In this document: piece by piece, positions 27,220 through 43,836 of the stretch | Numbering within the stretch: position 1 is the stretch's first letter | Layout: every line of letters starts with the position of its first letter | Assembly (NCBI GenBank): GCA_963770895.1 | Contig: CAVYRF010000001.1 | Span: forward strand, 384,001-448,000 | DNA from: an uncultured Acidobacteriota bacterium | Lineage (GTDB): Bacteria; Acidobacteriota; Thermoanaerobaculia; Multivoradales; UBA5704 | Length of the DNA: 64,000 nucleotides | Direction: 5' to 3' | The notes under the pieces: generated by a model | The model's input: only the letters and a program-made list of their open reading frames with translations | What the model was told of the DNA's origin: nothing | The model's database searches: none | Program-made: the position numbers and the translations under genes

Positions 27220-28194
27220 ATGCGCCACTTTCGCGGAATATTGGTGACACTGATTGTCTTCGCTCTGCTCTCGATGACCGCACGGCGGGCGGCGGCCCAG
27301 AAAGGTCTCTACCAAGGCATCGACAGCTTGGCGGCCGCCATCCTTGAGAAAGTAACGCAGGAACAGAAACATAGAGTCGCCGTCCTTCCCTTCCACGAGA
27401 TGACCGGCCGCACGAGCGTTCTCGACTCTTATCTTTCGGAAGCCCTGCTGACCGAGCTGGTCCGCGCCGGCAAGGTCGAAGTTATCGAGCGCGCCATGCT
27501 CGATCGGTTGCTCGGCGAGATCAAGCTCGGCCAGACAGGGATCATTGACTCGGAGACGGCCAGGCGGGTCGGCAAGGTGGCGGGAGTCGACGCGATCGTA
27601 ACCGGCACAATTACGGAGCTGCGCACTTACCTTGCGGTGAACTGCCGCCTCATCGACACCCAGACGGGCCAGGTGTTTGCCGCGGCGCAAACCTGGATCA
27701 ACAAAGACAGCGACGTGATGGCCTTGCTGAACCAGCGCGACTCCGGCGGAGCGGAGCCGGCGACCGCTGAACGAGAACCGTCGAAAAAGACCGTGCCCAT
27801 TGCGCCGCCTCCGCTGCCACAAGCCGTCATCGAGCGCGATTGCATATTCCAATTAAAGGGCTGCACCCTCTTTGGTTCAACGCTCAAATGCGACATCCTC
27901 ATTACCGACAAGGGAGTCGACAGGACGCTAATCTTTGGCAAAAACGACCGCACAAGGATTATCGACGACAGCGGCCGAGAATATCGCGGCATTTCGTTTT
28001 CGATTGGCTCGCACAGCAACGACTACGCAGCACGAGGAAGTCTCACGACGGATGTTCCGATCAGGGGACAGCTTCAATTCGGCGGCTTGAGCGCGGCAGT
28101 ACGGAAGCTGTCGCTGCTTGAGTTTCACTACACCATGGACTACAACCATGGCATCTATAGCGGAGTAATCAGGTTTACAAACATCGCTCTCTGA
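27220..28194 (+). CDS. Secreted FlgO/CsgG-like domain protein
   Basis: Signal peptide; RVAVLPF...LSEALLTELV...VIERAMLDRLLGE...GKVAGVDAIVTGTI...RLIDTQTG. Confidence 0.8.
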   Translation: MRHFRGILVTLIVFALLSMTARRAAAQKGLYQGIDSLAAAILEKVTQEQKHRVAVLPFHEMTGRTSVLDSYLSEALLTELVRAGKVEVIERAMLDRLLGEIKLGQTGIIDSETARRVGKVAGVDAIVTGTITELRTYLAVNCRLIDTQTGQVFAAAQTWINKDSDVMALLNQRDSGGAEPATAEREPSKKTVPIAPPPLPQAVIERDCIFQLKGCTLFGSTLKCDILITDKGVDRTLIFGKNDRTRIIDDSGREYRGISFSIGSHSNDYAARGSLTTDVPIRGQLQFGGLSAAVRKLSLLEFHYTMDYNHGIYSGVIRFTNIAL

Positions 28195-28262
28195 GCGCGG
28201 CTCACCCCTCATGCCAAGCGAAGTAACCGTGCGGGGCGGCGGCGGCTTGTCCTTCGCCATCG

Positions 28263-29273
28263 TCAGCACGAGTAGACGAGCCGGGCGATCACGGCATCCC
28301 AGGCGCGGCTCACGGCCAGCAGGTGCGCGGGCTGCTGCTCGGCGGGGGTGATGCCGCTGCGCACGTGGTCGACCAACCGATGCAGCGCAACGCGATTGGC
28401 CTGGTCGCGCTGCCACCAGAAAAACGCCCCCACGGTCGGCGGGGGGGATGCCGGTGCCAGGTCCGTCCAGGCAGGCAAGGCATTCACGCCGGCGCTGGCC
28501 GCTCCCGTGGCGATGGCGCCTCCCAGCGCTGCGATGGCAGGGATCCAGAGGACCGGACCGCTGGCCTCGCCCAGGAAGAGTGTCCCTTCTTCGAAGGTCG
28601 CCGTGACGCGATGGCTCACCCAGGCGCCGGAGCCGTCGTCGTCGGCCGTATCGAGGCGCAGGCACTGCAACGTGATGGCCACGCCGGCGACAGAGCCGTC
28701 GATGGACAGCAGCGGCATGTCTGACGGCGCGGCGGCGTCCGTCGCGGCGCCATGCAACCGCAGCGCCGCGAGCCCGCCCAGTGCCCGGGCGATCAGGTCG
28801 AGGCCCGAGTAGAGAGCGCGCGAATTGGTGGCCAGCGACAGGTGGCGGAGGCGCGTGCGCTGGCGCAGGGCGGCACAATGGGCGAGGAACCGCTGCGGCA
28901 GCTCGCAGTCCCCGTAGTGGGAGTTGACGTGCAGGACGAGGCGCCGGCCGACCGCCTCACCGAGGAGCGCCGCGAGCGCCGCCTCGGTCAGCGGGTGCTC
29001 GATCAGCACGTGGGCGCCGCGGCGGAGGAAGCCCAGGGCCAGGTCGCAGCCGGCTTGGCCGCTCACCGCGACGCAGGCCAGATCGACGCTGCCCGCCGGC
29101 ACCTGCCGCGGCTCCCGATAGAGCGGCACACCGAGCTGGGAGGCCAGGTGCCGCGACCGCTCCGAGCCGCGGGCGAGCAGGCCGACGAGCCGCAGCCCGT
29201 CCGGGTGCGGCCAGGGGCTGAGGGCGCGCAGGTAGGCCGAGCCGTACAGCGTGCCGCAGAGGAGGACCCGCAT
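28263..29273 (-). CDS. Thiazolinyl imine reductase-like oxidoreductase (Irp3/YbtU/PchG type, Gfo/Idh/MocA fold)
   Basis: RVLLCGTLYG..YL, GLLARGSERSR.LA..LGVPLY, DLACVAV, HVLIEHPL, HVNSHY, LYSGLDL, GPVLW. Confidence 0.85.
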   Translation of the reverse strand: MRVLLCGTLYGSAYLRALSPWPHPDGLRLVGLLARGSERSRHLASQLGVPLYREPRQVPAGSVDLACVAVSGQAGCDLALGFLRRGAHVLIEHPLTEAALAALLGEAVGRRLVLHVNSHYGDCELPQRFLAHCAALRQRTRLRHLSLATNSRALYSGLDLIARALGGLAALRLHGAATDAAAPSDMPLLSIDGSVAGVAITLQCLRLDTADDDGSGAWVSHRVTATFEEGTLFLGEASGPVLWIPAIAALGGAIATGAASAGVNALPAWTDLAPASPPPTVGAFFWWQRDQANRVALHRLVDHVRSGITPAEQQPAHLLAVSRAWDAVIARLVYSC

Positions 29274-29296
29274 GGCGCTCTCGGTGGCGGTGCCGC

Positions 29297-30046
29297 TCAG
29301 GCCGGCAGGCCGGCACACGCCAGGTAGACCGCGTCCTCCTCGCCCGCCGGCAGGTCGAGGAGCCGGTTGACCTCCTGGTCCAGGAAGCCGCCGATCACCA
29401 CTGCCGCCAGGTCCATGGCGGTCGCGACCAGGCAGAGGTTCTGGCCGACGTGGCCGGCCTCGAGCCAGACGTAGCGGTAACCACGCTGGCCGTATTTCCA
29501 GGTGGTGCGCGCAAAGATCGCGGTCAGGCAGACAAACAGGTTGGCGTCGCGCAGCAGATCCTGCCCCAGCGCCAGGTTGGCAAGCTCGGCGTGCAGCGCG
29601 CCGCGCCGGCGCAGTGCGAGCTGGTGCGTCCAGGGGTCGTAATGGTAGAGCCCGTCGGCGAGCCCCTCCACGCGCTGCGCGGCGACGTAGAGCTCCAGCG
29701 GGTGCAGGGCGCCGGCCGAAGGGAACGGGCGGTCGTCCGCCACCGCGCCCTCGACCTGCAACATGCCCTTGACCCCGAATGCGGCGTGCAGCAGGCGACC
29801 CAGGGTCGCGAGCGGCAGCTCTCCCTGCCGGAAGTCGCGCCGCGAGCGCCGGCCGGCCAGGGTCTCGCCGAGCGGCCGCGGGAGAGCGAAGTCGCGGCCG
29901 GAAAGCTGCACGCGCTCGGCACCCAGGTAGAGGCGCCGCTGCCCAGGGCGATCCTGCCCGGCTGCGAGATCCGGCAGCTTGGCGCGGCTGTTCGAGGAGT
30001 TGAGGTGGTAGAGGCGGGCGAGATCCACTTCGCGGGTGCTGGGCAT
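29297..30046 (-). CDS. SagB/ThcOx-family FMN-dependent azoline dehydrogenase
   Basis: LYHLNS, RRSRRDF, PSAGALHPLE, WKYGQRGYRY, EAGHVGQN; alternative start at 30067 overlapping the YcaO stop. Confidence 0.93.
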   Translation of the reverse strand: MPSTREVDLARLYHLNSSNSRAKLPDLAAGQDRPGQRRLYLGAERVQLSGRDFALPRPLGETLAGRRSRRDFRQGELPLATLGRLLHAAFGVKGMLQVEGAVADDRPFPSAGALHPLELYVAAQRVEGLADGLYHYDPWTHQLALRRRGALHAELANLALGQDLLRDANLFVCLTAIFARTTWKYGQRGYRYVWLEAGHVGQNLCLVATAMDLAAVVIGGFLDQEVNRLLDLPAGEEDAVYLACAGLPA

Positions 30047-30066: not shown

Positions 30067-32547
30067 TCAGGCGAGGGGGTGCGGCTGGGGATTGACGCCG
30101 CGCGGGCCGAGCAGCGCCGCGAGGCGCGGGTTGGCCAGCCGCCGCAGGCGCTCGCCGAAGTGGATCGGCTGCACGTCGGTGCCTAGCGCCCGGGCGACCC
30201 GGAAGGGACTCAGCGCCACGTCCGGCGAGGTGACGTCGACGATCGCCACCCGCACCCCCGCCGCTGCCAGCCTCTCCGCGCAACCCGCCAGGGTCGGCGC
30301 GGCGGCGACCGGCAGGTCGGCCAGACGCAGCGGCTCGCCGCCGCCCACGCGCAACGTGTCGAGCAGCGGCAGGCGCTCGACAGGCGCGTAGTAGAGGGCA
30401 TGATCGTCGAGGCTCTGCACCTGGTCCGGCGAGGCGGGCGCGCGCTGGCCGCTGCGCATCAGCCCGGCGATGTAGGGGCCGACGTGCGCCAGTTCGAGCA
30501 GCGCCTTGCGCGCCGCCACCTGAGGGTCGACGTGGGTGGCCAGTGCCACCGCTGCGGCGGGCCAGCGCTCGCCGTCGCCCAGGCCCAGGCTCGCCACGGT
30601 CGGGATCCCCAGCCCGACGTCCAGGAGGTAGAGCTCCACGGCGACGCCGCGTTCGCCGAGCAGGCGCACGACCTCGGCCGCCGCCCCTTCGAATCCGCCG
30701 TCGTCGAAGCGCAGCGCGCGCCCGGGCAGCTGGCACAGCCAGCTCAGCATGAAGGCGTCCCGCTCCACCAGCTCGAAGAGAGCCCGCACTGCCGCGTCCT
30801 CGAGATCGCCGCCCGCCGCCAGGCCGTTGGAGGAGACCTGGCAGAAGAGCTCCTCGCGCGGCACCGCGAAGTTGAAGTAGGCCGTCAGCGCCGGCAGCCA
30901 GACCGCTTCCCGGTTGTCGATCCAGAAACCGCGCACCCAATGCTGGGGTCGGTCGGGGTCGAAGCGCGCGAACGGGAAGTCGGGTTCCTCGTAACGGCTC
31001 TCCTCGTAGAGGCAGAGCCGGCGGGGGTCGAGGGCCAGGTCGCCCAGCTCGTTGAACGACGCCACTTTCAGGTCCTGCTTGCGGTAGCGGGACGCCGAAT
31101 AGCGCTCGATCGCCTCGCCTGCCGCGCTCAACATCGCCTCGACCTCGGTGAGCCCCTTGCCCGAGCCGACCGGCGGGTCCGGGATGCCGCGCACCCGCCC
31201 ACCCTCCGTGTAGGCCGCGAGGATCGCCGTTGCCGTCCGCGGCAGCTCCGGCAAGGAGGGATCGGCCGGGTGCGCCTGGCCACAGGCCAGGGCGCGCAGG
31301 ACACCGGTGCGTGGATCGACCCATCCTGCGAGGAGCGCCTGCAGCTCCGCGACGCTCTGCACGCGCGCCAGGCTGCCCGAGGGGCCGGGCTGGCCCGGCC
31401 GGCCATCCTGGCCCGCCGCTGCCGGCGGTGCGACGGCGCCCCCCGGATTGCGGGAATCCTGCGCAGCCCCGCCGCAAACGTGGCACCAGGGCATCCTGAC
31501 CACCCCGTGGTGCGTGACGTCGGTTGTGATCAGGTTGTGGACGATGACGCGCCCTTGCAGGTGCGAGTGGGTGAAGGTGGTGAGCAGCTTCAGCGCTTCG
31601 ATGGCCATCAGCTGGCCGGCCACCGGCGCCATGGGCGCCAGGTAGCTGCGCGCGCGGCGCGCGGCCGGCGCTGCCACCAGCGACGCGTCGACCTCGTGCG
31701 CGACGAGAGGATGGTCGGCGGCGCCCAGGCGGCGCAGGCGGAAGCAATTCCAGCAGGCGGTCTGGCCGGGTACGACGGCCGGCCCGATCCAGGCTTCGAA
31801 GCCTTCGAGATGGCCGTACAACGAGCGCACGCCGACGCGGTGAGCGTACTCGGCCGCTTGCTGCAACCAGAACAGATCGTCGGCGGTGAGGCCGGTGACG
31901 ATCAGGTCCCAGGCGCCACCGGCCGGGCCGGGAGCGGCGGCAGGGCCGTCCCCGCGCAGGCATTCCAGGCTTTCCGCGCTCACCGCGCACCGGGGTGCGA
32001 CGTCGCGCACCAGCTCCCGTATCACCTCACGGCGCAAACGGCCGCGATGGTGCGGGCGCAGCAGGCGTACCGCCAGCAGGTCGTCGGGCTCCACGGTGGC
32101 ATCGTCCAGCAGGTGCAGCGCACCGACGCCGGCAGCGGCCAGCTCGCACGCGGCCACCGCTCCCCACGGCTCGAGCCCGACCAGTAAGACCCGGGCCTGG
32201 CGCAGGCCCTCGCCGGCCTCGGCGGGGGCGAGGCCGACGCCCTGGAAGAATCGCTCCTGGGCTGCGCCGGCGGCTTCGGGCTCACCGGCGGTATCCGCCG
32301 CCGATTCGACGAGCCCCTTCTGGCGCAGCAGCTCGAGAAGGCCGTGCACGCTTGCCGGCGAGTAGCCGGGCAAGGCTCCGGCCACCTCGTCGAGATCGCG
32401 GCTGCCGTCGAGCAGCGGCAGCAGCTGGCTGACAAAGACGCTGATATCGGGGCCGTCGAGCTGGAAGCTCCCGAGGTCCGACCGAAGGACCACCGCCTGC
32501 GCCATGGGCGTGATGCTGGCGGACGGGCTCAGGCGTACCTTGCTCAT
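30067..32547 (-). CDS. Fused RRE/E1(ThiF-like)-YcaO azoline-forming cyclodehydratase (TOMM C-D fusion)
   Basis: N-terminal RRE-like region (LLPLLDGSR..DEV...LLELLRQKGLVE); IGPAVVPGQTACWNC; PWCHVCG; GSGKG; EAIERY; SSNGLAAG; ELVERD; C-terminal PQPHPLA; alternative GTG start at 32559. Confidence 0.95.
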   Translation of the reverse strand: MSKVRLSPSASITPMAQAVVLRSDLGSFQLDGPDISVFVSQLLPLLDGSRDLDEVAGALPGYSPASVHGLLELLRQKGLVESAADTAGEPEAAGAAQERFFQGVGLAPAEAGEGLRQARVLLVGLEPWGAVAACELAAAGVGALHLLDDATVEPDDLLAVRLLRPHHRGRLRREVIRELVRDVAPRCAVSAESLECLRGDGPAAAPGPAGGAWDLIVTGLTADDLFWLQQAAEYAHRVGVRSLYGHLEGFEAWIGPAVVPGQTACWNCFRLRRLGAADHPLVAHEVDASLVAAPAARRARSYLAPMAPVAGQLMAIEALKLLTTFTHSHLQGRVIVHNLITTDVTHHGVVRMPWCHVCGGAAQDSRNPGGAVAPPAAAGQDGRPGQPGPSGSLARVQSVAELQALLAGWVDPRTGVLRALACGQAHPADPSLPELPRTATAILAAYTEGGRVRGIPDPPVGSGKGLTEVEAMLSAAGEAIERYSASRYRKQDLKVASFNELGDLALDPRRLCLYEESRYEEPDFPFARFDPDRPQHWVRGFWIDNREAVWLPALTAYFNFAVPREELFCQVSSNGLAAGGDLEDAAVRALFELVERDAFMLSWLCQLPGRALRFDDGGFEGAAAEVVRLLGERGVAVELYLLDVGLGIPTVASLGLGDGERWPAAAVALATHVDPQVAARKALLELAHVGPYIAGLMRSGQRAPASPDQVQSLDDHALYYAPVERLPLLDTLRVGGGEPLRLADLPVAAAPTLAGCAERLAAAGVRVAIVDVTSPDVALSPFRVARALGTDVQPIHFGERLRRLANPRLAALLGPRGVNPQPHPLA

Positions 32548-32618: not shown

Positions 32619-32652
32619 GGCCCGCGCGCCGATCCAGGGTTGCGCGCGGGCC
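32619..32652 (-). terminator. GC-rich stem-loop between the precursor and cyclodehydratase genes (stabiliser or partial terminator)
   Basis: Perfect 11-bp inverted repeat GGCCCGCGCGC-N12-GCGCGCGGGCC; no U-tract on the transcribed strand. Confidence 0.55.
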
Positions 32653-32682: not shown

Positions 32683-33135
32683 TCACTTGGAGGACGAGCA
32701 TTGAGCGCACGGGGTGCACTGGGCGCACGGCGTACATGGGGTGCACTGGGCGGCGTACTGCGTACATGGGGTGCACTGGGCGGTGCACTGCGTACATGGA
32801 GTGCACTGGGTGGTGCACGGCGTACAAGCGGTGCACGGCGCGCACAGGGGGGTCGCATGGGCCTGGTAACAGGGCTGGCAATTGACGCAGTTCTGACACA
32901 GCGCTTGGATGCACGAATTGCAGAGAATGCAGGCGGGAGGAGTGCATGTGAGGCACGGTGGGTGACACGGCCAGCACGCCGCTACCCAACACGGGTGCGC
33001 GACCACGCAGGGCTTCTGGGTCGCCTGCGTCAACGCGTCGACCTTATGTTGCAGGCCGTTGACCGCAGCGTGCAGCTCGGTCAGGACAACATGAAGATCC
33101 TTGGGAGGGTTTGGATCGTGGGGCTCATCGGCCAT
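32683..33135 (-). CDS. Cys-rich RiPP (TOMM/LAP) precursor peptide, 150 aa, 28 Cys
   Basis: AGGAG RBS; 42-aa Cys-free leader with an amphipathic helix; core of C-x2/x3-C repeats; first gene of the YcaO operon. Confidence 0.88.
   Translation of the reverse strand: MADEPHDPNPPKDLHVVLTELHAAVNGLQHKVDALTQATQKPCVVAHPCWVAACWPCHPPCLTCTPPACILCNSCIQALCQNCVNCQPCYQAHATPLCAPCTACTPCTTQCTPCTQCTAQCTPCTQYAAQCTPCTPCAQCTPCAQCSSSK
32731..32826. repeat. 30-bp coding tandem repeat (3 copies plus a partial) in the precursor core
   Basis: Units start cgtaca at 32731, 32761, 32791 and 32821; they encode QYAAQCTPCT, QCTAQCTPCT and PCTTQCTPCT. Confidence 0.9.
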
Positions 33136-33282: not shown

Positions 33283-33311
33283 ATTATAGCAAAAGCAGCG
33301 ATACCGCTCAA
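33283..33311 (-). promoter_or_regulatory. Sigma70 promoter of the RiPP operon
   Basis: TTGAGC-N17-TATAAT with extended -10 (TGc) in an AT-rich patch, ~148 nt upstream of the precursor ATG. Confidence 0.8.
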
Positions 33312-33369: not shown

Positions 33370-34836
33370 CTACGGCTTGGGCGGCAGCGATTGCGATGCG
33401 GCCTGGATGGCGCGCTCGAGCAGCTCGTCGCGGCCGGCGGCGATCCCCTGGCGGGTGGGAGCGACGGGGATCGTGGGGAGGATGCCGACGCCGTGGTGGC
33501 GCGAGCCGTCCTGTTTGTCGACCCGCATGCCCGTCCAATGGATGCGATAGCCACCGGGCAGGGTAAAGGGGTTCACGTCGCCGTTGGTGCCGGCGGTCGG
33601 GCCGCCGACGATCTCTCCCAGGTGGTAGTGCTCGACGATCCCCATGCAGCTCTCGGCGTAGCTGATGGCGCGGCCGTCGGTCACGAACACCAGGCGCGCC
33701 GTGAGCCGGACCGGGAGTGGCTCCAAGGTCCAGGCGCTTTCCCAATAGGTCACCCCCTGGCGGTCGGGGCGGATGGTGACCGGTATGCGCCAGCGCGCCG
33801 AGTGGAAGGTCTCGCCCACCAGGTGCTGCAGGAAGAGCGGCGAGAGCGTCGGATAGCCGCGAAAGTCGATCACGATGGCGCGCGCCTTCGCCAGGCGGTC
33901 GAGCGCCGCGGTGAAGTCCTGGTCCTGGATTCGCTGCACGTCGAGATACATCACGCCCGGAGCCACCTCGGCGATCGGGGCCGGGCGTCGCTCCGCGATC
34001 GCGCCGGGACCCTGGATCGGCAGCGAACGGTCGACGGTCACCGTCGCCGTCTCGCCGGTCAGGTGAGCGACCGACAGCCGCACGCTCGCCGACGGCCCCC
34101 TGAGCAGCCGCTCCACGGAGACGTACCGCAGAAACTGCGGCGTGGCAGCCGACGTCAGCTCCTGCTCGGCGGCAATCACCTCGGCTGCCGGACGGCCGTC
34201 GATCGCCGTCACGACGTCGCCGGGCTGGATGCCGGGGGCGTGCGCCGCATCGACCGCGGTCACCACCAGCTGCCCTTCGACCCAGCTCCAAGAGAGCGGC
34301 AGATGGAACGTCGCGGAGGTGGCGGAGATCAGGGTGACCAGGCCGTGGCCGTCGTGCAGCGCCGCGACCATCCGCCGCAAGGTATCGCGGAAAGCTACCG
34401 CGTCGCGATCAGTCGCGGCGCCACGCAAAGCCCGCCGCAGCTCCGCCGGCCAATCCGTCCCCGTCACGTCGAAATAGGGGTAGAAGTGCTGGAAGACATT
34501 CCAGGCCAGGATTACGTCGGCAAGCCGCGTCGCGCGATCGTCGCCCGAAGGGAAGAATCCGTCCGGCTTCTCGGGTGCCGGCGCCAGCACCCCGGCCGGC
34601 ACCTCCGGCAGCGTCCCCTTTTCATCGGCATAGAGCGTCAGCGGCACCGCCGCCGACACGCCGCCGCCCAGATCGACAGTCACCGGCTTGCCAGGCGGCG
34701 GCCAGTCGAGCGCCAGAGGCTTGCCATCCGGGTAGGTCTGCGGCCCCGTCACGTCGACGCGCTCGCTCAGGTAGAGCCCGCGCGCCACGTCCATGCCGGC
34801 ACCGACCCCGAAGTGGCGCCATCCCAGGACGCGCAC
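33370..34836 (-). CDS. S41-family peptidase with PDZ domain, apparently lacking its N-terminus
   Basis: WNVFQHFYPYF, L.DGHG, PDZ (PGDVVTAIDG), IDFRGYP, AISYAES, TAGTNG, HGVGILP; no signal peptide or clear start. Confidence 0.82.
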   Translation of the reverse strand: MRVLGWRHFGVGAGMDVARGLYLSERVDVTGPQTYPDGKPLALDWPPPGKPVTVDLGGGVSAAVPLTLYADEKGTLPEVPAGVLAPAPEKPDGFFPSGDDRATRLADVILAWNVFQHFYPYFDVTGTDWPAELRRALRGAATDRDAVAFRDTLRRMVAALHDGHGLVTLISATSATFHLPLSWSWVEGQLVVTAVDAAHAPGIQPGDVVTAIDGRPAAEVIAAEQELTSAATPQFLRYVSVERLLRGPSASVRLSVAHLTGETATVTVDRSLPIQGPGAIAERRPAPIAEVAPGVMYLDVQRIQDQDFTAALDRLAKARAIVIDFRGYPTLSPLFLQHLVGETFHSARWRIPVTIRPDRQGVTYWESAWTLEPLPVRLTARLVFVTDGRAISYAESCMGIVEHYHLGEIVGGPTAGTNGDVNPFTLPGGYRIHWTGMRVDKQDGSRHHGVGILPTIPVAPTRQGIAAGRDELLERAIQAASQSLPPKP

Positions 34837-35003
34837 CTTTCCCGGTGGCGCGGCCAGCAGCTCCGCAGGGATGGGTCTGGGCAGGTTCGCAGAGGTTGCG
34901 CCGGGGGTGGGGCCGATGGCGGGCCGGCTCCGCTTCGGGCTCCGCTGCCGCGGACGCGAGGCCGCCCCGCCGCCGACGCTATCTGAGCGGCGGGACCGAG
35001 CGC

Positions 35004-36134
35004 ATGGAGCAATACCTGTCGGCGGCGCGGGAGCATGTCTCCCGGCGCTGCGCGGCGGATCGCGAGTGGCTCTACCGCAAACCCTTCGACGCCAATGCCG
35101 GCAATGCTGCGTTCTTCGACGAGATGTACTCGGTGATGAACCTGCTGCGGGCGATGGCCATCACGCCCGGCGGCAGGGTGCTCGAAGTCGGCAGCGGCCC
35201 CGGATGGGTGACCGAGATCCTGCTGGCGTTGGGTTATGAGGTCCATGCCCTCGAACCCAGCGAGGAGATGATCGCGATCGCCGCCGAGCGCGTCGCGGCC
35301 GCCCGCGGTCATTTCCATCTCGGCGACAGCCCGCCCGTCACCTTCCACGCCGAACCGCTCGAAACCTGCTCGCTTCCCAGCGAAGCCTATGACGCGGTGC
35401 TCTTCCATGCCTCGCTGCACCATGTCGTGGACGAAGATCGCGGCCTGGCCCAGTGTTTCCGCCTGCTGCGGCCGGGCGGCGTCCTGGGAGCGAGCGAAGG
35501 GGCCTGGATCCCCGGCGACCGCAAGCTGGAAGCCCAGCTCGACCAGGAGATGCAGCGCTTCGGCACACTCGAAAACCCCTACACCGTGGAATACCTCGAC
35601 TTCCTGCTCCGCCGCCACGGCTTCGTGGACGTTCGGCGCTACTTTGCCGTCAACGGCCTGCTGCCAGAGGCGATGGGGCGCCGCCCGGTGGCCGCGGTCG
35701 CCACCTCCCGTCCCTGGGACGGCAACAACCTGACGGCCCGCAAGCCCTCGCTCCATCGCGCCACCACCCTCGACGGCGGCACCGCCCGAACGCGCGCCCG
35801 GATCACCGTATTGGCGACCACCCTCGATCGACCCACCGGCGCCGCCCACCTCCAGGTGCGCCTGGCCAACCGCGGCGACACGGCCTGGCTGGCAAACGCT
35901 CCGCGCGTGGGTTGGGTGGCCGTCGCCCTGCGCCAGGGCGAACCGGGCAGCCCCGATCTCGTCGAGGCGGGCGGCCGCCACCCCCTGCCGCGCACCCTGG
36001 CCCCCGGCGAACAGATCGTCCTCGACCTCGACTTCCGCCTGCCTCCCGCACGCGCCGCCGGCCCCTGGCTTCTCGATCTCGTGAACGAAGGCATGTTCTG
36101 GTTCTCCGAGCGCGGCAGCCCGCCGTCCCCGTGA
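35004..36134 (+). CDS. Class I SAM-dependent methyltransferase with C-terminal Ig-like domain
   Basis: VLEVGSGPGW, YDAVLFHASLHH, LRPGG; C-terminal VRLANRGDTAW...LAPGE...LDLVNEGMFWF. Confidence 0.88.
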   Translation: MEQYLSAAREHVSRRCAADREWLYRKPFDANAGNAAFFDEMYSVMNLLRAMAITPGGRVLEVGSGPGWVTEILLALGYEVHALEPSEEMIAIAAERVAAARGHFHLGDSPPVTFHAEPLETCSLPSEAYDAVLFHASLHHVVDEDRGLAQCFRLLRPGGVLGASEGAWIPGDRKLEAQLDQEMQRFGTLENPYTVEYLDFLLRRHGFVDVRRYFAVNGLLPEAMGRRPVAAVATSRPWDGNNLTARKPSLHRATTLDGGTARTRARITVLATTLDRPTGAAHLQVRLANRGDTAWLANAPRVGWVAVALRQGEPGSPDLVEAGGRHPLPRTLAPGEQIVLDLDFRLPPARAAGPWLLDLVNEGMFWFSERGSPPSP

Positions 36135-36170: not shown

Positions 36171-38048
36171 TCAGCTACAGGGCAACGCCGCTGTGTCCTG
36201 CACCGGTGCCGCGGCGGTGCCGTCCGTGTTGGCGTAGGACTTGTGAGCGCCGGTCTGCAGGTCGGTCACCACGGCGGTGAAGCCGACGTTGGTGCCGGCG
36301 GCGTAGAACAGCCAGTATTTCTGGTTGACGCTGCAGCCGTCGATGACCTTGATCAGCATCTCCGGGTTGTCGGCGCTGAAGAACCAGAAGAGACCGCCCT
36401 GCGCAACGCCCAGGCTGTTGAGGGCGATCGCGTGGCCGTTGCCCGCGCTGCCGCCGCCCTCCGCGGTCTTGTAGCTGGCCGTGATCTGAAAACGGCCATT
36501 GATGCACAGAGTGGTGCCGTTGGCGGTACAGGTGGCGGCCTCGGGCAAGGCATCGATCGCGGTCGGCGGGGGGCTCTGCTCGGCGCTCGCGGGGCGCCGG
36601 TCGCCCGCTTCGAGGTGGGCGCTGGTCGCCGCGGCGACGTCGCCAGCGGCGGCGTCTGGAGCAGCGGGCGCGGCGTCTCCCTGGGCGTCGCACGTGAAGG
36701 CGGCGGTGTCCTGTTGCGGCGGCGCGGCGGTCTCGTCGGTGTTCTGGTAGGTCTTGGTGCGAGGAGTCTTGGTGTCCTTGACGCTGACGGTGAAGCCGAC
36801 GTTGGTGGTCGCCGAGTAGAACAGCCAGAAATGTTGGTTGACCGAGCAGCCGTTGATGACCTTGATCAGCATCTCCGGGTTGTCGGCGTCAAAGAACCAG
36901 AACAGGCCACCTTCGGTGACGCCCAGGCTGGCGAGCGGGATCGCCTGGCCGTTGCCGGCGAGCCCGCCGCTCTGCGCCGTCTTGTAGGCGACGCCGATCT
37001 GCCAGCGCTTGTCGCCCGGCTTGTCGTCGATGCACAGGGTTGTCGCCGTCGCCACGCAAGCCGCGTTGTGGGGCAGTTCCACACGGCCCACCTTGTTGCC
37101 GCTCACCTCGGTGAACCACATGTTGCCGTCGGGCCCGGCGGTGATGCCGCCCGGACTGGAGTGCGCCGTGGGCACCGGATACTCCGTGACCTTGCCGGCG
37201 GTGGTCACCATGCCGATCTGATTGGCCTCGAACTCGGTGAACCAGAGGTTGCCATCGGGTCCGGCGGTGATGAAAACGCTACCCGCCGTCGAGGTCGGCA
37301 GCGGAAACTCGGTGATCACGCCCGCCGGGGTGATGCGCCCTAGGTTGTTGCCGGAGAGCTCGGTGAACCAGACATTGCCGTCGGGGCCGAGGGTGATCCC
37401 GGTTGGCGCGGGTTGGGCGCCGGCGTCGGGTAGCGCGAACTCGTGGAAGACGCCGGCCGTCGTGAGCCGCCCGACCTTGCCGGTGTTCTGCTCGGTGAAC
37501 CAGAGGTTGCCGTCGGCTCCCACCGTGATGCCGGCGGGTCCGGCGCCGCCGGTCGGCACGGCGAACTCCTTGCACGCGCCGGCGGTCGTGATGCGTCCGA
37601 TCTTGCTACCGTTGAGCTCGGTGAACCAGAGGTTGCCGTCGGGGCCGGCCACGATGTCCGCCGGTCCGGCCTGAGAGGTGGGTACGTCGAAGAGCGTCAC
37701 GGCGCCGGCGGTCGTGATGCGTCCGATCTGATTGCCTTCGTAGGCCGCGAACCACAGATTGCCGTCGGGCCCCGCCGTGATGCCGCCCGAAACCGGGCTC
37801 GACAGCGCGCTCGCGACCGGAAACTGATTGACCACCGTGCCGGCGGTGGTGATGCGGCCGACGGCGTTGCCCTCGAGCTCGGTGAACCAGAGGTCGCCGT
37901 CCGGACCGGCGGCGATGCCGGCCGGCGACACGCCGCTCGTCGGTACCGGAAACTCGTTGATCGTGATGGCGCCGGCGGGCGCCGCCGCGAGGGTCGCCAG
38001 GATGACTGCGAACACCGCCGCACGGATGTCGTCGCTGAAGGTTGCCAT
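36171..38048 (-). CDS. Secreted Vgb (virginiamycin B lyase)-like beta-propeller with two tandem lineage-type C-terminal domains
   Basis: Signal peptide; 7 repeats of GITAGPDGNLWFTE..GNxIGRIT; 2x TLCI...GLFWFF.ADNPEMLIKVI.GCSVNQ..WLFY. Confidence 0.88.
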   Translation of the reverse strand: MATFSDDIRAAVFAVILATLAAAPAGAITINEFPVPTSGVSPAGIAAGPDGDLWFTELEGNAVGRITTAGTVVNQFPVASALSSPVSGGITAGPDGNLWFAAYEGNQIGRITTAGAVTLFDVPTSQAGPADIVAGPDGNLWFTELNGSKIGRITTAGACKEFAVPTGGAGPAGITVGADGNLWFTEQNTGKVGRLTTAGVFHEFALPDAGAQPAPTGITLGPDGNVWFTELSGNNLGRITPAGVITEFPLPTSTAGSVFITAGPDGNLWFTEFEANQIGMVTTAGKVTEYPVPTAHSSPGGITAGPDGNMWFTEVSGNKVGRVELPHNAACVATATTLCIDDKPGDKRWQIGVAYKTAQSGGLAGNGQAIPLASLGVTEGGLFWFFDADNPEMLIKVINGCSVNQHFWLFYSATTNVGFTVSVKDTKTPRTKTYQNTDETAAPPQQDTAAFTCDAQGDAAPAAPDAAAGDVAAATSAHLEAGDRRPASAEQSPPPTAIDALPEAATCTANGTTLCINGRFQITASYKTAEGGGSAGNGHAIALNSLGVAQGGLFWFFSADNPEMLIKVIDGCSVNQKYWLFYAAGTNVGFTAVVTDLQTGAHKSYANTDGTAAAPVQDTAALPCS

Positions 38049-38319
38049 AGCGCTCGTCTCCAAGGTCCTCGTGGAGGGGAATACCTGGTTGGCGACCTCG
38101 AGAGTTCGCCGCGGTTGACGCGAAGCAACGTCAAGGTAACACACGGTGCCCGGCCCGGCGTGGCGAGGCAAAGGGTGCGCCTGCCGGCTGCGGTGATGGC
38201 GGCGAGCTGGCCGGTTTTGAAGCGGCTTCAGGACCGGAGGCTCCGCCAGCAGACGCTGCCCGCCAGCTGGTGGCCAGGTGGGCGTCGGGATCGGTGGGCT
38301 CTCGGCCTACGCTTGCGCT

Positions 38320-41300
38320 TCAGGGGCTCGCGCCGGCAGCTGGCGCCGGCGCCTGGGCCGCCTGGGCCGCGGAGATCTTGATGGTGGAGAAGGGCGAGAG
38401 GGTGAGCGTGCCGGGGTCGGCGAAGAACCAGCGCACCACCTGGCCGGCGAGGTTCGACATGCCGGCCGGGCGCGCGGCGCTGGCACGCAGGCGGGCCAGG
38501 CGCTCGACGGGATGGTCGACCGGCACGGCGTTGCCGGCGTCGTCGACGGCGAAGCCGCCGACCGCCTCGGCGAGGTCGGCGAGCGCGGTGCTGTCGGCGG
38601 AGGAGGTCTCGGGCTGGTCCCAGACGCGCACGGTGCCGTCGTTGTCGACGGTCATGACGCGCGAGCCGTCGGGGCTGAAGGTGGCTCTGGTCACCCAGCC
38701 CTGGGGGGGCGCGTGCCAGAGCGGTTCGGCGAGCTGGTGGCAGGAATCGACGTCCCAGACCTGGGCGAAGCCGTCGGCCGAGCGGGCGAGGAATCGCTGG
38801 CCGTCGGCGCTGAGCTCGGCGACGAAAGGGGTTTCGGCGACCGGGGGATAGACCTGGGAGGCGAGTTGAATGCGGCAGAGGAGCCGCCCGTTCGCGATCT
38901 CCCGCACCTCGACCTCGCCACGCCCGAGCGTGGCGATCATTCGCGTCGCGTCCTGGCTGAAGCTCAGGGTCTGGAACCCGCTGTCGAACGGCACGGAGCT
39001 GCCCGTCGGCTTGCCGCTTGGCGCGAAGAACCTGAGCACATGGTCGGCAGCGAGGATGGCGATGAGCCTGGCATGGGGGCTCCAGAGTCCCACGATTGGG
39101 TTCGCCAGCTCGACGTGGCCGACCATGCGGCCCGTTTGCGTTGCCCACACCTGGAGTCCGGACTTCGCCCAGGTGAGGACAAAGCGGCCCTCGTCGTCGA
39201 TCTCGGGTCTTTTGTCGTCAAGTTGGCGTGTCGCCGGGATCTCTTTGCCGCTGCGCGCATCCCAGCTTTGGATCTGCCAACCGACCGCCCACCAGGGCCC
39301 CAGCGCCAGGAGCCGCTCGCCGTCCGCGCTCACCTGAGCCGAGGACAGCTCTCGCACCTGAGGCACCTTGATCACCGCGCTGAGGCTGCGACCCGTCCTG
39401 GCATCCCAGGCCTGCAGGGTGTTCCGCTGCGGGTCGGCCGCGACCACGGCCAGCCGTCCATCCGCCAGCAGGTTGGCCGACAGCACCGGCAGCCCGCCAG
39501 GAGACACGACGCTGCTTTCCCCGGTCGCGAGGTCCCAGAGCCGCACGGTTCCATCCTGGGTGACGGCGATCGCCTCGGCGCCCCGGCTGCCGAACAGGGC
39601 GTAGCGGACCGGCTGCGCCAGGAGCTGCGGGCGGGCGTATCGGTCGGGGCGCATGTCCCAGATCTCGGCCGTTCCGTCATCCGCGGCGCTCACCGCCTTG
39701 CGTCCGTCGCGGCTCCAGCCGACGACGTTGACGGGACCCTTGTGCCGCAGGGCTTGCATCGCAGTTTCGCCGGTGCGGGCATCCCACAGCCACGCGGCGG
39801 AGTCGCGCGAGCCGGTCAGCACCCATCGGCCGTCCGGGCTGAAGTGCGCCGTGGACACCAGCCTGTCGTGCGGGATCGGCCGCGGCGGCGACCCGGGGGC
39901 GTCGAGGTTCCACAAACGCACGACGCGGTCGGCGCAGACGGTGAGCAGCGTGTGGTCGTCGGGACTGAACTCGGCCCAGGTGACAGGCGCCTTGTGATCG
40001 TGAGTGGAAACCACTCGCAGCGTCGTGAGGTCCGCGATCCGCACCGTACCCTGGGCGCCGACGGTGAGCAGGCGGTCGCCCCGGTGGTTGAAGGCCACCA
40101 GGGTCGCATCCTTGCCGAGAGACGAGAGCTCCCCCCGGGCGGCGCCGGCGCGCCGATCGAACAGGAGCGGTGCTTCGGCGGTCGGCAGGACGACGAGCAG
40201 CGGGGGCTCGCCGATCACGGTATTGCCGGTGGCGGCGAACCGCTTGCCGTCCGGGCTCAAGGCCGCAACATGGTAGGGAGGGGTCAGACGCTCCTGGGTT
40301 CGAGCATCCCATAGCGTGGTGCCTTCGTACGAGCTGATCATGAGCCGGTCGCCGCGCGAGCTCCACGCCACGCCGTCCACGGGAGGGTAGACCTTCATCT
40401 CGCGACCGAGGGGGGCGCCGCTCCTGCCGTCCCAGATCCGTGCCACGCCATCCTGGCAGCCGGTGAGCACCCGGTCGCCGTCGGGGCTGAACGCGGCCGA
40501 GGTCGCCGCGCCGCCATGGCGCATCACGGCCAGGGGGGCGCCGTCGCGCACCCGCCAGAGTCGCGCGGTGCCGTCAAGCGAGGCCGTCAGCAGGCGCTCC
40601 CCGTCCGGGCTGAGCTCGGCGGCGGTGACCGCCCGGTCGTGCCGCACCCTCAGCACCGGCAGCGGCCAGCTCTCGTGCAGCAGGATGCCGAGGGCGCGGT
40701 GGCGGGCGTCGTCGCTGTCCTCTGGGCGCGACCTCATGATCGAGGCGAGGTAGGCCAGAGCCTGCGCGGCGCGGCCTTTTTCGATCAGGTTTCCCGCCGA
40801 ATCGAAGAGCGCCCGCTCGGCGCGCCGCTGGGCGCTATCCGCGGCTTTCTCAGCCGCCTGGCTGTGCCGCCACAGGACGGCGGCGGCGATCGCCAAAACG
40901 ACGGTGGCGACCAGCACCCAGCCGAGCACCAGCGCCAGCTTGCGGCTGCGCGCGAGCAGGCGGCGCGTCTCGCGCTCGCGCTCGCCGGCCTGCTGCGCCA
41001 GGCGGTCGGCCTCGCGCGCGTCTTCTTCCGCCTGGCGGCGGGCCTCGCGCTGGCGGCGCAGCTCGCGGCTCTCGCCGATGACCTCGGTCAGCACGTCGTG
41101 GGTGAGCTCGACCCAGTCGACGCCGTGGCGCTCCTCGATGCGCAGCAGGCGCCGGTCGCGCAGGGTGAGCAGGGCGGCGGCCGTGACGCCCGGCACGGCG
41201 ACGGCGTTGTCCCACGCGACGCTGTCGCGGTAGCCGGAGCGGGTGAGCAGACGGTCCTCGATGAAGGTGCGCATCTCGGGGGTGAGCCCGGCCAGGCTGG

Positions 41301-42429
41301 CCTCGTAGAAGCGCGTCAGGATCTCCTTCCACGAACCGGAGAGCAGGTCGAAGGTGATGGTGGCCTCGCCGCGGTCCCGCCGCCGGTTGTTGAGCTCGCG
41401 GCAGACCAGGCTGAGCAGGGTGGGGTCGACCGTGAGCTCGGCGAGCGGCGGCGGGCCGTCCGCGCCGGCCTGCCGCCCGGCAAGGCCCTGGCGTTCCGCC
41501 GCCGCGCCACCGGCGCCGGCCGTCTCCTCATGCTCCGCCGCCGCGGCGCCCGCCCCGTCCGCACCGCCCGCCTGGGCCCGGCCGGCGCCCGAGACGAAGC
41601 GCACGACCTTCTCCGCCACCTCCGGCGCGATGAGGTGGCCGCCGGCGCAGGTCACGACGCGCAGCGCCGCTTCGCCGGTCATGTGCCGCAGCGCCAGCCG
41701 GCTGGCTCCGAGCGAGCGCATGCGGGCGCGCAGGGTGTCGAGGTCGGCCAGGAAGTCCTGGCGCAGGCAGACCAGGATCTTGTAGTCGTGCCGTTCGGGC
41801 GAGAAGTCCGCGGCGAGCGCCGGCGCGGCGTCGAGGCGCGCCTTGACCGCCGCGGGCGGGCGGCCCTCGACCAGGTCGGCGAGCTCGGCGAGGAACGCCT
41901 CGCGGCCGGGGTCCTTTCTGCCCAGGGTGAAGATCTCCTCGAACTGGTCGAAGACCAGCAGCGGCACGACGATGCGGTTGGCCGCGCTCCAGAAGTTGGC
42001 GCCCGCGCGGTGGAGCGACTCCCAGAGGGTCTCGCCGGGCGGCAACGGCGGCGCCTCGACCCGCGCGTCCGCCGCCGCGGCAAGGATCGCGTCCCGCACC
42101 TGGTCGACCAGCCCCCGCTCGGCGGGGCCGCGCTCGCCCGCCCAGGCCAGCCGGATGGCGACCGGCAGCACCTCCTGCCGGCGCAGCCGCGGGAAGAGGC
42201 CGGCCTGGAGGAGCGAGGTCTTGCCCAGCCCGGAACGGCCGTAGACCACGGTGGCACGGGTCGATTCCCGCATCACCGTGCGGCGCAGCTCCTCGATCTC
42301 GTCTTCGCGGCCGAAGAAGAAGGCCTGGTCCTGCTCGCGGAACGACGGCAGCCCCGGCCAGGGATTGTCGCGATCGACCTGCCCGCCCTGGGCGGCAAGG
42401 GACGCCGGCGCCGGCGCGGCCTCCGTCAC
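38320..42429 (-). CDS. nSTAND1-like NTPase, TM helix, WD40-repeat protein
   Basis: NPWPGL.SF...FFGRE, Walker A GRSGLGKTS, Walker B LVFDQFEE, ELTHD, one TM, many FSPDG...TAS.DGT.R.W repeats; GTG overlaps the TIR stop. Confidence 0.9.
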   Translation of the reverse strand: MTEAAPAPASLAAQGGQVDRDNPWPGLPSFREQDQAFFFGREDEIEELRRTVMRESTRATVVYGRSGLGKTSLLQAGLFPRLRRQEVLPVAIRLAWAGERGPAERGLVDQVRDAILAAAADARVEAPPLPPGETLWESLHRAGANFWSAANRIVVPLLVFDQFEEIFTLGRKDPGREAFLAELADLVEGRPPAAVKARLDAAPALAADFSPERHDYKILVCLRQDFLADLDTLRARMRSLGASRLALRHMTGEAALRVVTCAGGHLIAPEVAEKVVRFVSGAGRAQAGGADGAGAAAAEHEETAGAGGAAAERQGLAGRQAGADGPPPLAELTVDPTLLSLVCRELNNRRRDRGEATITFDLLSGSWKEILTRFYEASLAGLTPEMRTFIEDRLLTRSGYRDSVAWDNAVAVPGVTAAALLTLRDRRLLRIEERHGVDWVELTHDVLTEVIGESRELRRQREARRQAEEDAREADRLAQQAGERERETRRLLARSRKLALVLGWVLVATVVLAIAAAVLWRHSQAAEKAADSAQRRAERALFDSAGNLIEKGRAAQALAYLASIMRSRPEDSDDARHRALGILLHESWPLPVLRVRHDRAVTAAELSPDGERLLTASLDGTARLWRVRDGAPLAVMRHGGAATSAAFSPDGDRVLTGCQDGVARIWDGRSGAPLGREMKVYPPVDGVAWSSRGDRLMISSYEGTTLWDARTQERLTPPYHVAALSPDGKRFAATGNTVIGEPPLLVVLPTAEAPLLFDRRAGAARGELSSLGKDATLVAFNHRGDRLLTVGAQGTVRIADLTTLRVVSTHDHKAPVTWAEFSPDDHTLLTVCADRVVRLWNLDAPGSPPRPIPHDRLVSTAHFSPDGRWVLTGSRDSAAWLWDARTGETAMQALRHKGPVNVVGWSRDGRKAVSAADDGTAEIWDMRPDRYARPQLLAQPVRYALFGSRGAEAIAVTQDGTVRLWDLATGESSVVSPGGLPVLSANLLADGRLAVVAADPQRNTLQAWDARTGRSLSAVIKVPQVRELSSAQVSADGERLLALGPWWAVGWQIQSWDARSGKEIPATRQLDDKRPEIDDEGRFVLTWAKSGLQVWATQTGRMVGHVELANPIVGLWSPHARLIAILAADHVLRFFAPSGKPTGSSVPFDSGFQTLSFSQDATRMIATLGRGEVEVREIANGRLLCRIQLASQVYPPVAETPFVAELSADGQRFLARSADGFAQVWDVDSCHQLAEPLWHAPPQGWVTRATFSPDGSRVMTVDNDGTVRVWDQPETSSADSTALADLAEAVGGFAVDDAGNAVPVDHPVERLARLRASAARPAGMSNLAGQVVRWFFADPGTLTLSPFSTIKISAAQAAQAPAPAAGASP

Positions 42430-43823
42430 GCCGAGGCGCCCTTCCTCTCCTGCTGCTGGTACTTCCGGTAGAGATCCCGCAGCCGCTCGACGAAGGATGG
42501 GTCGGCCTGCCCGGCAGGCAGGCGCGTCCAGTGGAGGGCGCGGAACAGCTCGGGCAGCGCCGCCTCGCTCGCCGAGACGTCGTCGACCGCCACCGGCAGG
42601 ATGAACGGCCGGTTGGGCGGGAAGAGCGGCGCCAGGTCGACCGCCTCGTTCCATTCGCGGCGGAAGAAGCGCGGGGCGTCGGTCAGGGTGTGGCGCGAGA
42701 GGACCGGCACGAACAGGCTGGAACCCTGGATGGCGCGCCGGATCTTGAGGCGGTAGTCGTCGCCCCCTTCGAGCGCCTGCTTGTCGAACCAGACGTCCAG
42801 GTTGCGGGACGCGAGGGCGTCGTGGATGGCGCGCGCCGCCTCCAGGTCCTCGCTCGCATAGGAGAGGAAGATGGCGCCGGGCTGCATCTCGGCGCGGCCC
42901 GGGCGCGGCGCCCCGGCGGCGGGGTCGCCGGCGGCGGAGGCGCCGGGCGCGGGCGCGGGATGCGCTTCGCCCCAGCGCCGCGCCAGCTCTTCGACGAACA
43001 GCGCGGCGCCGCCGGGGAAGACCTGGATGCCGGGACCGAAGTGGTGCAGGAAGAGCGCCAGGCCTTCTTCGCCGACTCCCGCTCGGTCGGCGAACACGTC
43101 GGTCTTGCCGCGCCGCGCCGACAGGCGCGCGCCGGTCCCGATGCGCAGGAAAAAGCGCGTCAGCCAGTCGGGGAAGTTGGTGCCGAGCACCAGCAGCGGC
43201 CGCTCGGCCAGCTCGTCGAGGACGCGCGGCCGCGTGTCCTCGGTCTGCAGGGAGTGGACGAACTCCAGCCGGTCCTCCTCGGTCAGCGCATATTCGCTCG
43301 ACAGCGCCGAGAGCTTGCCGAAAAGATGAAGGACGGCGGCGTCGCGCTCGCCGATGTCGCCGGGATCCACCGCCCCCGGAGAATACGAGAAGACCTCGGT
43401 GCGCGGCTCGCCGTCGAACCGCACCTGGTCGAGCGCCGCCTTGAGCAGCGAATCGAAGGTGGTCGAGATGAACAGCCGCAGCCGGGGAATGCCGGCGAGC
43501 AGCAGCAGCGGGCGCGGCAGCGGCAGCTCCTGCGGCGGGGGCATCGCCGACTTGAGCGCGGAGTAGAGGTACTGGACGTTGCCGCCGCGCGCCAGAAACC
43601 GGTAGGCCACCGCGTCGAGCTCGGCGCCGGCCGGATAGGCGTCGACCTCGACCTTGAGCCGCGCCGCCAGGCGCTCGGCGAGCAGCCGGTTGAGCGGCAC
43701 GTCACCGCCCGCTAGCGGCAGCGTGAGCAGGCCCTGGCCGACCACGGTCACCACGCGCCCCTCTTCGATGTACTCCAGGAGCTGTTCCCAGAAGAGCTCG
43801 AGGTCCGCCGCGGAAGCGCTCAT
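42426..43823 (-). CDS. SIR2-like (SIR2_2) plus C-terminal TIR domain protein
   Basis: GRVVTVVGQG, FISTTFD, LHLFG, LLVLG.NF.DWL; TIR: IFLSYASED, VWFDK..LEGGDD, FFRREW, FILPV. Confidence 0.88.
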   Translation of the reverse strand: MSASAADLELFWEQLLEYIEEGRVVTVVGQGLLTLPLAGGDVPLNRLLAERLAARLKVEVDAYPAGAELDAVAYRFLARGGNVQYLYSALKSAMPPPQELPLPRPLLLLAGIPRLRLFISTTFDSLLKAALDQVRFDGEPRTEVFSYSPGAVDPGDIGERDAAVLHLFGKLSALSSEYALTEEDRLEFVHSLQTEDTRPRVLDELAERPLLVLGTNFPDWLTRFFLRIGTGARLSARRGKTDVFADRAGVGEEGLALFLHHFGPGIQVFPGGAALFVEELARRWGEAHPAPAPGASAAGDPAAGAPRPGRAEMQPGAIFLSYASEDLEAARAIHDALASRNLDVWFDKQALEGGDDYRLKIRRAIQGSSLFVPVLSRHTLTDAPRFFRREWNEAVDLAPLFPPNRPFILPVAVDDVSASEAALPELFRALHWTRLPAGQADPSFVERLRDLYRKYQQQERKGASA

Positions 43824-43836
43824 GGAGTGTGCGACA

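Follow-up and report, generated by a model that had tools for sequence, protein, structure and literature searches.

An Acidobacteriota YcaO Operon That Encodes Both a SagB-Type Azoline Dehydrogenase and an Irp3-like Thiazolinyl Imine Reductase

The closest described systems to the operon reported here are those for microcin B17 (McbBCD) and streptolysin S (SagBCD), in which a leader-bearing, cysteine-rich precursor peptide is accompanied by an E1-like protein, a YcaO protein, and a flavin mononucleotide (FMN)-dependent dehydrogenase of the SagB/McbC type with a Lys-Tyr pair. The catalytic pair of McbC is Lys201/Tyr202 (PMC6395948). In this report, we describe a four-gene operon on the minus strand of a 64,000-nucleotide stretch of DNA from an uncultured Acidobacteriota bacterium (contig CAVYRF010000001.1, positions 384,001 to 448,000; hereafter the window). 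The operon contains each of these components, and unlike the McbBCD and SagBCD systems it adds a gene for an NAD(P)H-dependent reductase immediately after the gene for SagB. Its precursor is also very long and repetitive (28 Cys, and up to 131 in relatives), and the operon is not accompanied by a conserved protease, exporter, or immunity gene. The product is probably a ribosomal peptide that carries both thiazole and thiazolidine rings.

The nearest described relatives of the additional reductase are Irp3/YbtU from the yersiniabactin pathway and PchG from the pyochelin pathway, where the substrate is a thioester bound to a carrier protein of a nonribosomal peptide synthetase (NRPS). The Irp3-type reaction is described as a hydride transfer that is followed by protonation from a general acid (PMC7465668). 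A precedent for the oxidation of some azolines and the reduction of others within a single pathway, as we propose for the window operon, is found in the biosynthesis of sorangibactin. This nonribosomal product contains one oxazole and two thiazolidines; the cytochrome P450 SrbH oxidizes the oxazoline and the Irp3-like SrbI reduces the thiazolines (PMC10127202). Sorangibactin differs from the system described here in that it is not made by the ribosome, its oxidase is a P450 rather than a SagB, and it contains 3 rings rather than dozens. In the reviews that were searched, thiazolidines in peptide natural products are reported from nonribosomal assembly lines only (PMC9811515). Our search of the full-text literature, which reaches few subscription journals, returned neither a primary account of a reductase linked to YcaO nor one of a thiazolidine in a ribosomal peptide; only reviews on NRPS thiazolidines and unrelated chemistry were found. 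A search for a YcaO with a cysteine-rich precursor in Pseudoalteromonas turned up only a different system.

The Operon and Its Proteins

The G+C content of the window is approximately 71%, and raw lists of open reading frames (ORFs) are crowded with shadow frames for this reason. The genes in the region were resolved by using third-position G+C profiles together with profile searches. Four minus-strand genes form a compact operon in the order precursor, E1-YcaO, SagB, and reductase. The SagB-type dehydrogenase (249 amino acids, 29297..30046) and the Irp3-like thiazolinyl imine reductase (336 amino acids, 28263..29273) are separated by 24 bp from stop to start, and each scores above the curated NCBIfam cutoff for its family. 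The preliminary description of this DNA, made from the letters alone, had reported two opposing redox enzymes adjacent in one operon, and this arrangement is confirmed. Since 24 other loci (see below) have the same gene order, the adjacency of the two genes is far beyond chance. The only YcaO, the only above-cutoff SagB, and the only above-cutoff match to the reductase family TIGR01761 in the 8.16-Mb genome are those of the operon.

The reductase, translated from the ATG at 29273, begins with MRVLLCGT and belongs to the NAD(P)-binding Gfo/Idh/MocA fold class. It was found to score 205 bits against TIGR01761 (cutoff of 188.8), and it also matches PF01408 and PF21390 (Irp3-like_C, 35 bits with a cutoff of 27). 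A phmmer search aligns the protein with Irp3 (4GMF) across residues 2-330 with an E value of 2e-29, at approximately 29% identity. An AlphaFold model was obtained from an alignment of 20 homologues, with a predicted local distance difference test (pLDDT) score of 85.2. When this model was compared with the PDB, ranks 1-10 were all occupied by chains of Irp3, with template modeling (TM) scores of 0.79-0.84 and E values from 1e-23 to 6.5e-22. The next family consists of other Gfo/Idh/MocA enzymes, at an E value of 2.4e-13, which is worse by ten orders of magnitude. The segments E92-H93-P94 and N117-S-H119-Y120 are present, and in the phmmer alignment His93 and Tyr120 correspond to His101 and Tyr128 of Irp3, which we take to be the proposed catalytic residues of that enzyme. 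The window reductase is thus like Irp3/YbtU and PchG in its family score, in a TM score of approximately 0.8, and in the aligned His and, for this copy, the aligned Tyr.

The dehydrogenase scores 155 bits against TIGR03605, where the cutoff is 78.4, and it aligns with the PDB entries for CyaGox/ThcOx (a cyanobactin oxidase), McbC, and BmdC. The start codon was assigned to the ATG at 30046, which is preceded by a Shine-Dalgarno-like AAGGGA 7 nt upstream and agrees with the starts of the homologues; an alternative in-frame ATG at 30067 overlaps the stop codon of the YcaO gene (TGATG). When numbered from the ATG at 30067 (subtract 7 for the ATG at 30046), the protein contains RRSRR at residues 73-77, PSAGAL at residues 116-121, and the pair K191-Y192. 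The W-K-Y, RGYRY, and EAGH motifs are retained as well. Among 33 homologues, 32 have the Lys-Tyr pair. The preliminary description had judged SagB to be intact on the basis of the RRS.R, PSAG, and KY motifs and had proposed an alignment with ThcOx and McbC; its judgment is borne out by both the motifs and the alignment. From these residues, both SagB and the reductase look active.

The gene upstream of SagB (30067..32547) encodes an E1-like (ThiF/ocin leader-binding) domain fused to a YcaO cyclodehydratase, with a length of 826 amino acids from the ATG at 32547 or 830 amino acids from the GTG at 32559. The YcaO part scores 228 bits against PF02624 and 235.5 bits against TIGR03604 (SagD type, cutoff of 219.25). 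The fused N-terminal part scores 63 bits against PF00899 and 85.3 bits against TIGR03882 (cutoff of 36.9). The protein ends in NPQPHPLA, where N823, P826, H827, and P828 are invariant among 18 homologues. A C-terminal PxPxP is the motif of the azoline-forming YcaO proteins.

The first gene of the operon (32683..33135) encodes the precursor peptide of 150 amino acids, which was recognized as a Cys-rich ORF with a leader and by the presence of homologous precursors 5' of YcaO in 10 genome loci and 13 metagenome loci. A helical leader of approximately 42 residues (PKDLHVVLTELHAAVNGLQHKVDAL) is followed by a core of approximately 109 residues. The core contains 28 Cys, with CxxC spacing in 18 of the 27 gaps, and there are 12 Cys-Thr dipeptides. 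Neither this precursor nor its relatives belong to a family in Pfam or NCBIfam, and no match was found in the Atlas.

Related Loci and Tailoring Regimes

Related loci were collected in two scans. The first used an alignment of reductase homologues as the query against one genome per species and gave 49 loci. The second used an alignment of E1-YcaO proteins, a query that is blind to both redox genes, against metagenome contigs and gave 41 loci. All 90 loci (designated with the prefix L) were typed by tblastn with the window proteins and then checked with hidden Markov models (HMMs) constructed from the SagB and reductase alignments.

Type A loci repeat the arrangement of the window (precursor, E1-YcaO, SagB, and reductase, in that order), and 24 were found (10 from genomes and 14 from metagenomes, with several of the latter being nearly identical to one another or to genome loci). 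In the 31 loci of type B (27 genome and 4 metagenome), the reductase directly follows E1-YcaO, and SagB was found neither by tblastn nor by the purpose-built SagB HMM. The hosts are mostly Proteobacteria and include Pseudoalteromonas, Shewanella, Marinomonas, Endozoicomonas, Burkholderiaceae, Undibacterium, Methylococcaceae, Hellea, Phenylobacterium, and Lysobacterales; some of the loci in Pseudoalteromonas, Shewanella, and Marinomonas are from cultured strains, among them Pseudoalteromonas rubra, Shewanella abyssi DSM 17171, and Marinomonas spartinae CECT 8886. Five whole proteobacterial genomes of type B were searched with TIGR03605, and no match above the cutoff was found anywhere in any of the five. 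Since these genomes have no SagB above the cutoff, the type B reductase would work on the unoxidized products of the YcaO.

Type C loci, which are the converse, have E1-YcaO and SagB without a reductase. There are four of these (L068, L072, L074, and L075), all from metagenomes, with 1.7-5.2 kb of sequence past SagB that contains unrelated genes. This count is a minimum (at least 4). Four additional SagB-bearing contigs stop less than 1 kb past SagB and were left untyped. The remaining 15 metagenome loci were uninformative: 3 contigs end inside the YcaO gene, one has 1.07 kb downstream with neither redox gene, and 11 are more distant YcaO proteins with neither gene.

The 12 loci of type D (L038, L040-L044, and L046-L051), all from genomes of Acidobacteriaceae, place the reductase in a different cluster with Nif11 leaders and YcaO. 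The annotated example (L043:9989-15347) contains two Nif11-leader peptides, a stand-alone YcaO, a methyltransferase, a pro-kumamolisin-type protease, and an AMP-ligase, without SagB. Type D is a second context for an Irp3-like reductase among the peptides that ribosomes synthesize and that are modified after translation (RiPPs). Apart from these 12, the reductase gene directly follows a full-length E1-YcaO or SagB in 55 of the 67 reductase-bearing loci, which are from Acidobacteriota and several proteobacterial families. Because of this position, and because the window contains no NRPS domain, the YcaO-linked reductases are better regarded as a subfamily of their own, linked to RiPPs. They differ from Irp3/YbtU and PchG in being encoded within a YcaO/RiPP operon rather than an NRPS cluster, and their substrate would be a leader-bound peptide rather than a carrier-protein thioester.

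In total, 43 of the 67 reductase-bearing loci lack SagB, and at least four loci with YcaO and SagB lack the reductase. Either enzyme can therefore be done without in the wider family, and the two are paired in a single clade only. The preliminary description had raised the question of whether homologous loci keep both genes; they do so in all 24 loci of the window clade and in one relative genome (L094), and they do not in the wider family. Its refuting condition, that one enzyme be missing from most homologous clusters, thus has an answer that turns on which clusters are taken as homologous.

The precursors of types A, B, and C have in common a helical leader with the motif L-x-[LIV]-x-[LIV]-T-E-L that is followed by a CxxC-rich core. 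The mean core is 114 residues with a mean of 30 Cys for type A (n = 11) and 267 residues with a mean of 63 Cys for type B (n = 19). Type C precursors, from 7 contigs that comprise three near-duplicate pairs and L075, have shorter cores of approximately 45-60 residues with 13-17 Cys. Type C cores such as CHPICHPVCHPC are Cys-only repeats without Ser or Thr (L071 and L072). Since these SagB-only sister loci have cores that are free of Ser and Thr, the SagB lineage very likely accepts thiazolines. The most extreme member of the family is a type B precursor frame from Pseudoalteromonas aurantia (L016:5929-7482) of 518 amino acids, which contains 131 Cys, chiefly in QCxQC repeats.

A separate feature was observed in L010 (5187-6308) and 18 other proteobacterial reductase-only loci, in which a protein of approximately 370 amino acids is encoded just 5' of the Cys-rich precursor. 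Its N-terminus is similar to the precursor leaders and is followed by a few Cys, and the remainder, a domain without a family assignment, gives only a weak, subthreshold match to a THAP4-like heme-binding barrel (E value of 0.0016). The same YcaO may act on this protein as a second substrate, one that is folded.

The history of the two redox genes was followed in two trees. The reductase tree was constructed from 44 of 50 rows, with the six rows shorter than 300 amino acids left out, and was rooted at the midpoint. In this tree the type A reductases form one clade (support of 95/82) that is sister to 25 type B rows, and type D falls outside. In a quick tree of 57 full-length E1-YcaO rows, type C forms one clade. 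It belongs to an unresolved group together with the type A subclades, and the main type B clade lies elsewhere. The reductase is common to A and B, and SagB is common to A and C; with the trees taken as unrooted, loss of the reductase in type C would be the simplest interpretation. For 11 pairs of close type A loci, the ratio of nonsynonymous to synonymous substitution rates (dN/dS) was determined to be 0.10-0.22 for SagB and 0.09-0.28 for the reductase; the range for YcaO is similar, at 0.075-0.25. Both redox genes are under purifying selection in the type A clade. The order of the four genes is kept in the 24 type A loci and in L094 despite sequence identities as low as 40% for the reductase and 47% for SagB.

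Proposed Chemistry and Competing Explanations

We propose, with a slight preference for this reading over all others taken together, that the window encodes a RiPP operon of the thiazole/oxazole-modified microcin (TOMM) or linear azol(in)e-containing peptide (LAP) kind that has been extended by a reductase otherwise known from nonribosomal siderophore pathways, with the thiazolines of the precursor being split between oxidation by SagB and reduction by the reductase. Each chemical step, and the choice of sites, is put forward here from gene identity, operon structure, key residues, selection, and linkage. The E1-like half of the cyclodehydratase would bind the conserved helical leader of the 150-residue precursor, and the YcaO half, using ATP, would convert many of the 28 core Cys, and possibly neighboring Thr, to azolines. 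SagB (with FMN) and the reductase would then compete for the rings. SagB is predicted to oxidize some of them to aromatic thiazoles, and the Irp3-like enzyme, with NAD(P)H, to reduce the C=N bond of others to give thiazolidines. The product would be a polyheterocyclic peptide of approximately 110 residues whose rings occupy two or three states of oxidation, as decided by the local sequence. The preliminary description had suggested a division of this sort, by position or residue, into three oxidation states, and the suggestion is plausible. In type B loci, the conversion of thiazoline to thiazolidine by the reductase would be the only tailoring step.

Several observations weigh against this proposal. 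To judge from the type C cores, which argue that the SagB lineage accepts thiazolines, SagB and the reductase would both draw on one kind of ring, and competition for a single intermediate could leave either of them almost idle. The operon is patchy in its distribution, with an orthologue of SagB in only 1 of the 60 relatives searched and in none of the 9 genomes from the same genus; the single relative (L094) has YcaO, SagB, and the reductase together. In one type A locus from Thermoanaerobaculia (L045:9181-10492), the C-terminus of SagB is out of frame and the match to the reductase ends after 168 amino acids, which is the result of either decay or assembly errors. With no conserved protease, exporter, or immunity gene, the context lends no support to any particular fate or role for the product. 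The genome is also rich in NRPS genes, with 113 matches to condensation domains and frames of more than 10,000 amino acids, and it has no other TIGR01761 reductase. On another contig, an NRPS of 7035 amino acids (C2:3901916-3923023) has one true heterocyclization (Cy) domain, with the motifs FPLTEVQQAYWIGR and DYLIADAWS. The reductase may have a second role, in trans, in an NRPS pathway.

The final point on this side of the argument concerns the residues of the reductase. His93, Asn117, and His119 are present in 67 of 67 YcaO-linked reductases, and position 120 is Tyr only in 19 of the 24 type A reductases. Of the 43 others, 42 have Phe at this position and one has Trp. The preliminary description had stated that the reductase matches the catalytic positions of Irp3. 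The alignment agrees with this for the His and the Tyr of the window copy; the Tyr is not conserved across the family. Since the equivalent of Tyr128 is variable, the acid catalyst may differ from that of Irp3, and the substrate could differ also. The conserved acid of the YcaO-linked subfamily may be His119 or His93 rather than the Tyr of Irp3, from which the subfamily is set apart by the prevalence of Phe and by an invariant His119 of its own. Tyr120 was found only in reductases that coexist with SagB, a pattern that is confounded with phylogeny. Such a pattern could signal that the substrate is handled differently.

Five other explanations were considered. The first, which follows an idea in the preliminary description, divides the work by ring type, with SagB acting on the (methyl)oxazolines derived from Thr and Ser and the reductase acting on the thiazolines derived from Cys. 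The Cys-Thr dipeptides of the window core speak for such a division, and the known enzymes of the Irp3 type act on thiazolines (PMC7465668, PMC10127202). Thr follows 22% of the Cys in the 11 type A precursors and 10% in the 19 reductase-only precursors. However, this comparison of composition amounts to one independent contrast between clades, and core composition was dropped as a predictor of which residues are oxidized and which are reduced. In addition, the SagB lineage must take thiazolines if it is to act on the cores of L071 and L072. We consider a division by ring type to be unlikely, although less so than the explanations that follow.

It is doubtful, to a greater degree, that one enzyme or the other has no catalytic activity in this clade and is kept for the assembly or stability of the synthetase complex, with a single tailoring state as the outcome. 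Structural roles for subunits have a precedent in the microcin B17 synthetase complex, which is destabilized when the dehydrogenase is inactivated (PMC6395948), and the variable Tyr of the reductase could be taken in the same sense. Both enzymes retain their catalytic and cofactor motifs, however, and their dN/dS values are as low as those of YcaO. Lineages that need only one of the activities have simply dropped the gene for the other.

We regard as equally improbable a third explanation, in which the reductase makes no stable thiazolidines and instead reduces another electrophile derived from the YcaO reaction, or carries the thiazolines toward ring opening, with a reduced amide or backbone cleavage as the result. 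The replacement of the Irp3 Tyr in most members, the invariant His119, and the size of the precursors, which far exceeds that of any known substrate of Irp3, are consistent with some such difference. On the other side, the YcaO is of the azoline-forming SagD type, is fused to an E1-like domain, and has the C-terminal PxPxP, and the reductase is above the curated cutoff for thiazolinyl imine reductases with a fold that best matches Irp3.

A fourth explanation, that the reductase serves an NRPS pathway in trans and is beside SagB by accident, draws on the NRPS genes described above and on the absence of a second reductase. Against this, the NRPS is on another contig, and the 55 loci in which the gene comes directly after YcaO or SagB belong to several phyla. 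A main role in trans is unlikely in view of this conserved linkage, and we assign the explanation as a whole very little probability. The reductase was also considered as part of a local NRPS cluster, which was rejected because no NRPS domain is found within the 64-kb window.

The weakest explanation, a reversible redox switch of the rings for metal capture and release that the preliminary description had offered, recalls the metal-binding siderophores by resemblance only, through the CxxC-rich core and thiazoline/thiazolidine chemistry, and it can be set aside almost entirely: the operon is accompanied by no conserved gene for a transporter, a receptor, or a metal-related function, and single-enzyme lineages are common. 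By general chemistry, an aromatic azole would be no substrate for hydride reduction of the Irp3 type, and oxidation to the azole would be effectively irreversible for a hydride reductase.

Genomic Surroundings and Implications

A promoter-like site (TTGAGC-17 nt-TATAAT with a TG extension; 33283..33311, minus strand) is found 148 nt 5' of the precursor ATG. The assignment is a consensus match only, with agreement at 10 of 12 positions, and the region contains three such sites relative to 0.2 expected from shuffled sequences. Between the precursor and YcaO genes, folding of the minus strand gives a GC-rich hairpin with an 11-bp stem (32619..32652). The 141-nt intergenic stretch folds with an energy of -64.2 kcal/mol (z = -2.4), and the hairpin is a possible attenuator. 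A terminator-like hairpin with a T-rich tail was found by pattern matching on the minus strand at 28185..28197, 66 nt past the reductase stop codon; two such patterns occur in the region relative to 1.8 expected, so the evidence for this site is weak.

Only the four operon genes recur in at least five related loci, and no accessory gene (protease, exporter, immunity, transporter, receptor, or metal-related) is conserved among these loci. An upstream S41 peptidase and a downstream CsgG-like lipoprotein were considered as operon partners and rejected, since neither is conserved. The plus-strand genes beyond the operon, which are those for the CsgG-like lipoprotein and an ORF of 175 amino acids, converge on it. 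Just 5' of the operon are genes for a beta-propeller protein of the Vgb-lyase family (388 bits; 36171-38171, minus strand) and a class I methyltransferase (34575-36134, plus strand), which are likewise not conserved in the related loci. Farther along the minus strand (38320-44369), a STAND NTPase with WD40 repeats (1444 amino acids) is adjacent to a SIR2-like/TIR-domain protein (647 amino acids), and this pair resembles genes of anti-phage defense. A frame of 2269 amino acids (7085-13894, minus strand) with PKD, TIG, Ig-like, and bacterial TSP3 repeats and a PGAP1-like hydrolase domain is probably a giant surface protein.

The operon is best filed as a new TOMM/LAP variant that has drawn an enzyme for reductive tailoring from the family of siderophore-type reductases, and the window stands for the regime in which an oxidase and a reductase occur together. 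A broader proposal, which we make tentatively and with slightly more doubt than conviction, is that the Irp3-like enzymes beside YcaO are the first ribosomal azoline reductases and belong to a widespread and undescribed RiPP family that turns giant CxxC-repeat proteins (24 to 131 Cys) into polythiazolidine chains. The window type would then give a mixed pattern of thiazole and thiazolidine along the core of approximately 110 residues, and such a product could be a metal ligand that is similar to a siderophore or a metallothionein.

A natural omission experiment is provided by the lineages, some of which have the reductase alone, some the oxidase alone, and some the two together. These three regimes predict distinct mass shifts, which makes the family easily testable; the change expected per ring is -18 Da for an azoline, -20 Da for an azole, and -16 Da for an azolidine. 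The precursors richest in Cys, with up to 131 in one protein, invite the question of what function a protein heterocyclized so heavily would have. If the reductase acts as predicted, it would provide a third oxidation state for the rings of ribosomal peptides, one that could be engineered by editing the gene-encoded core.

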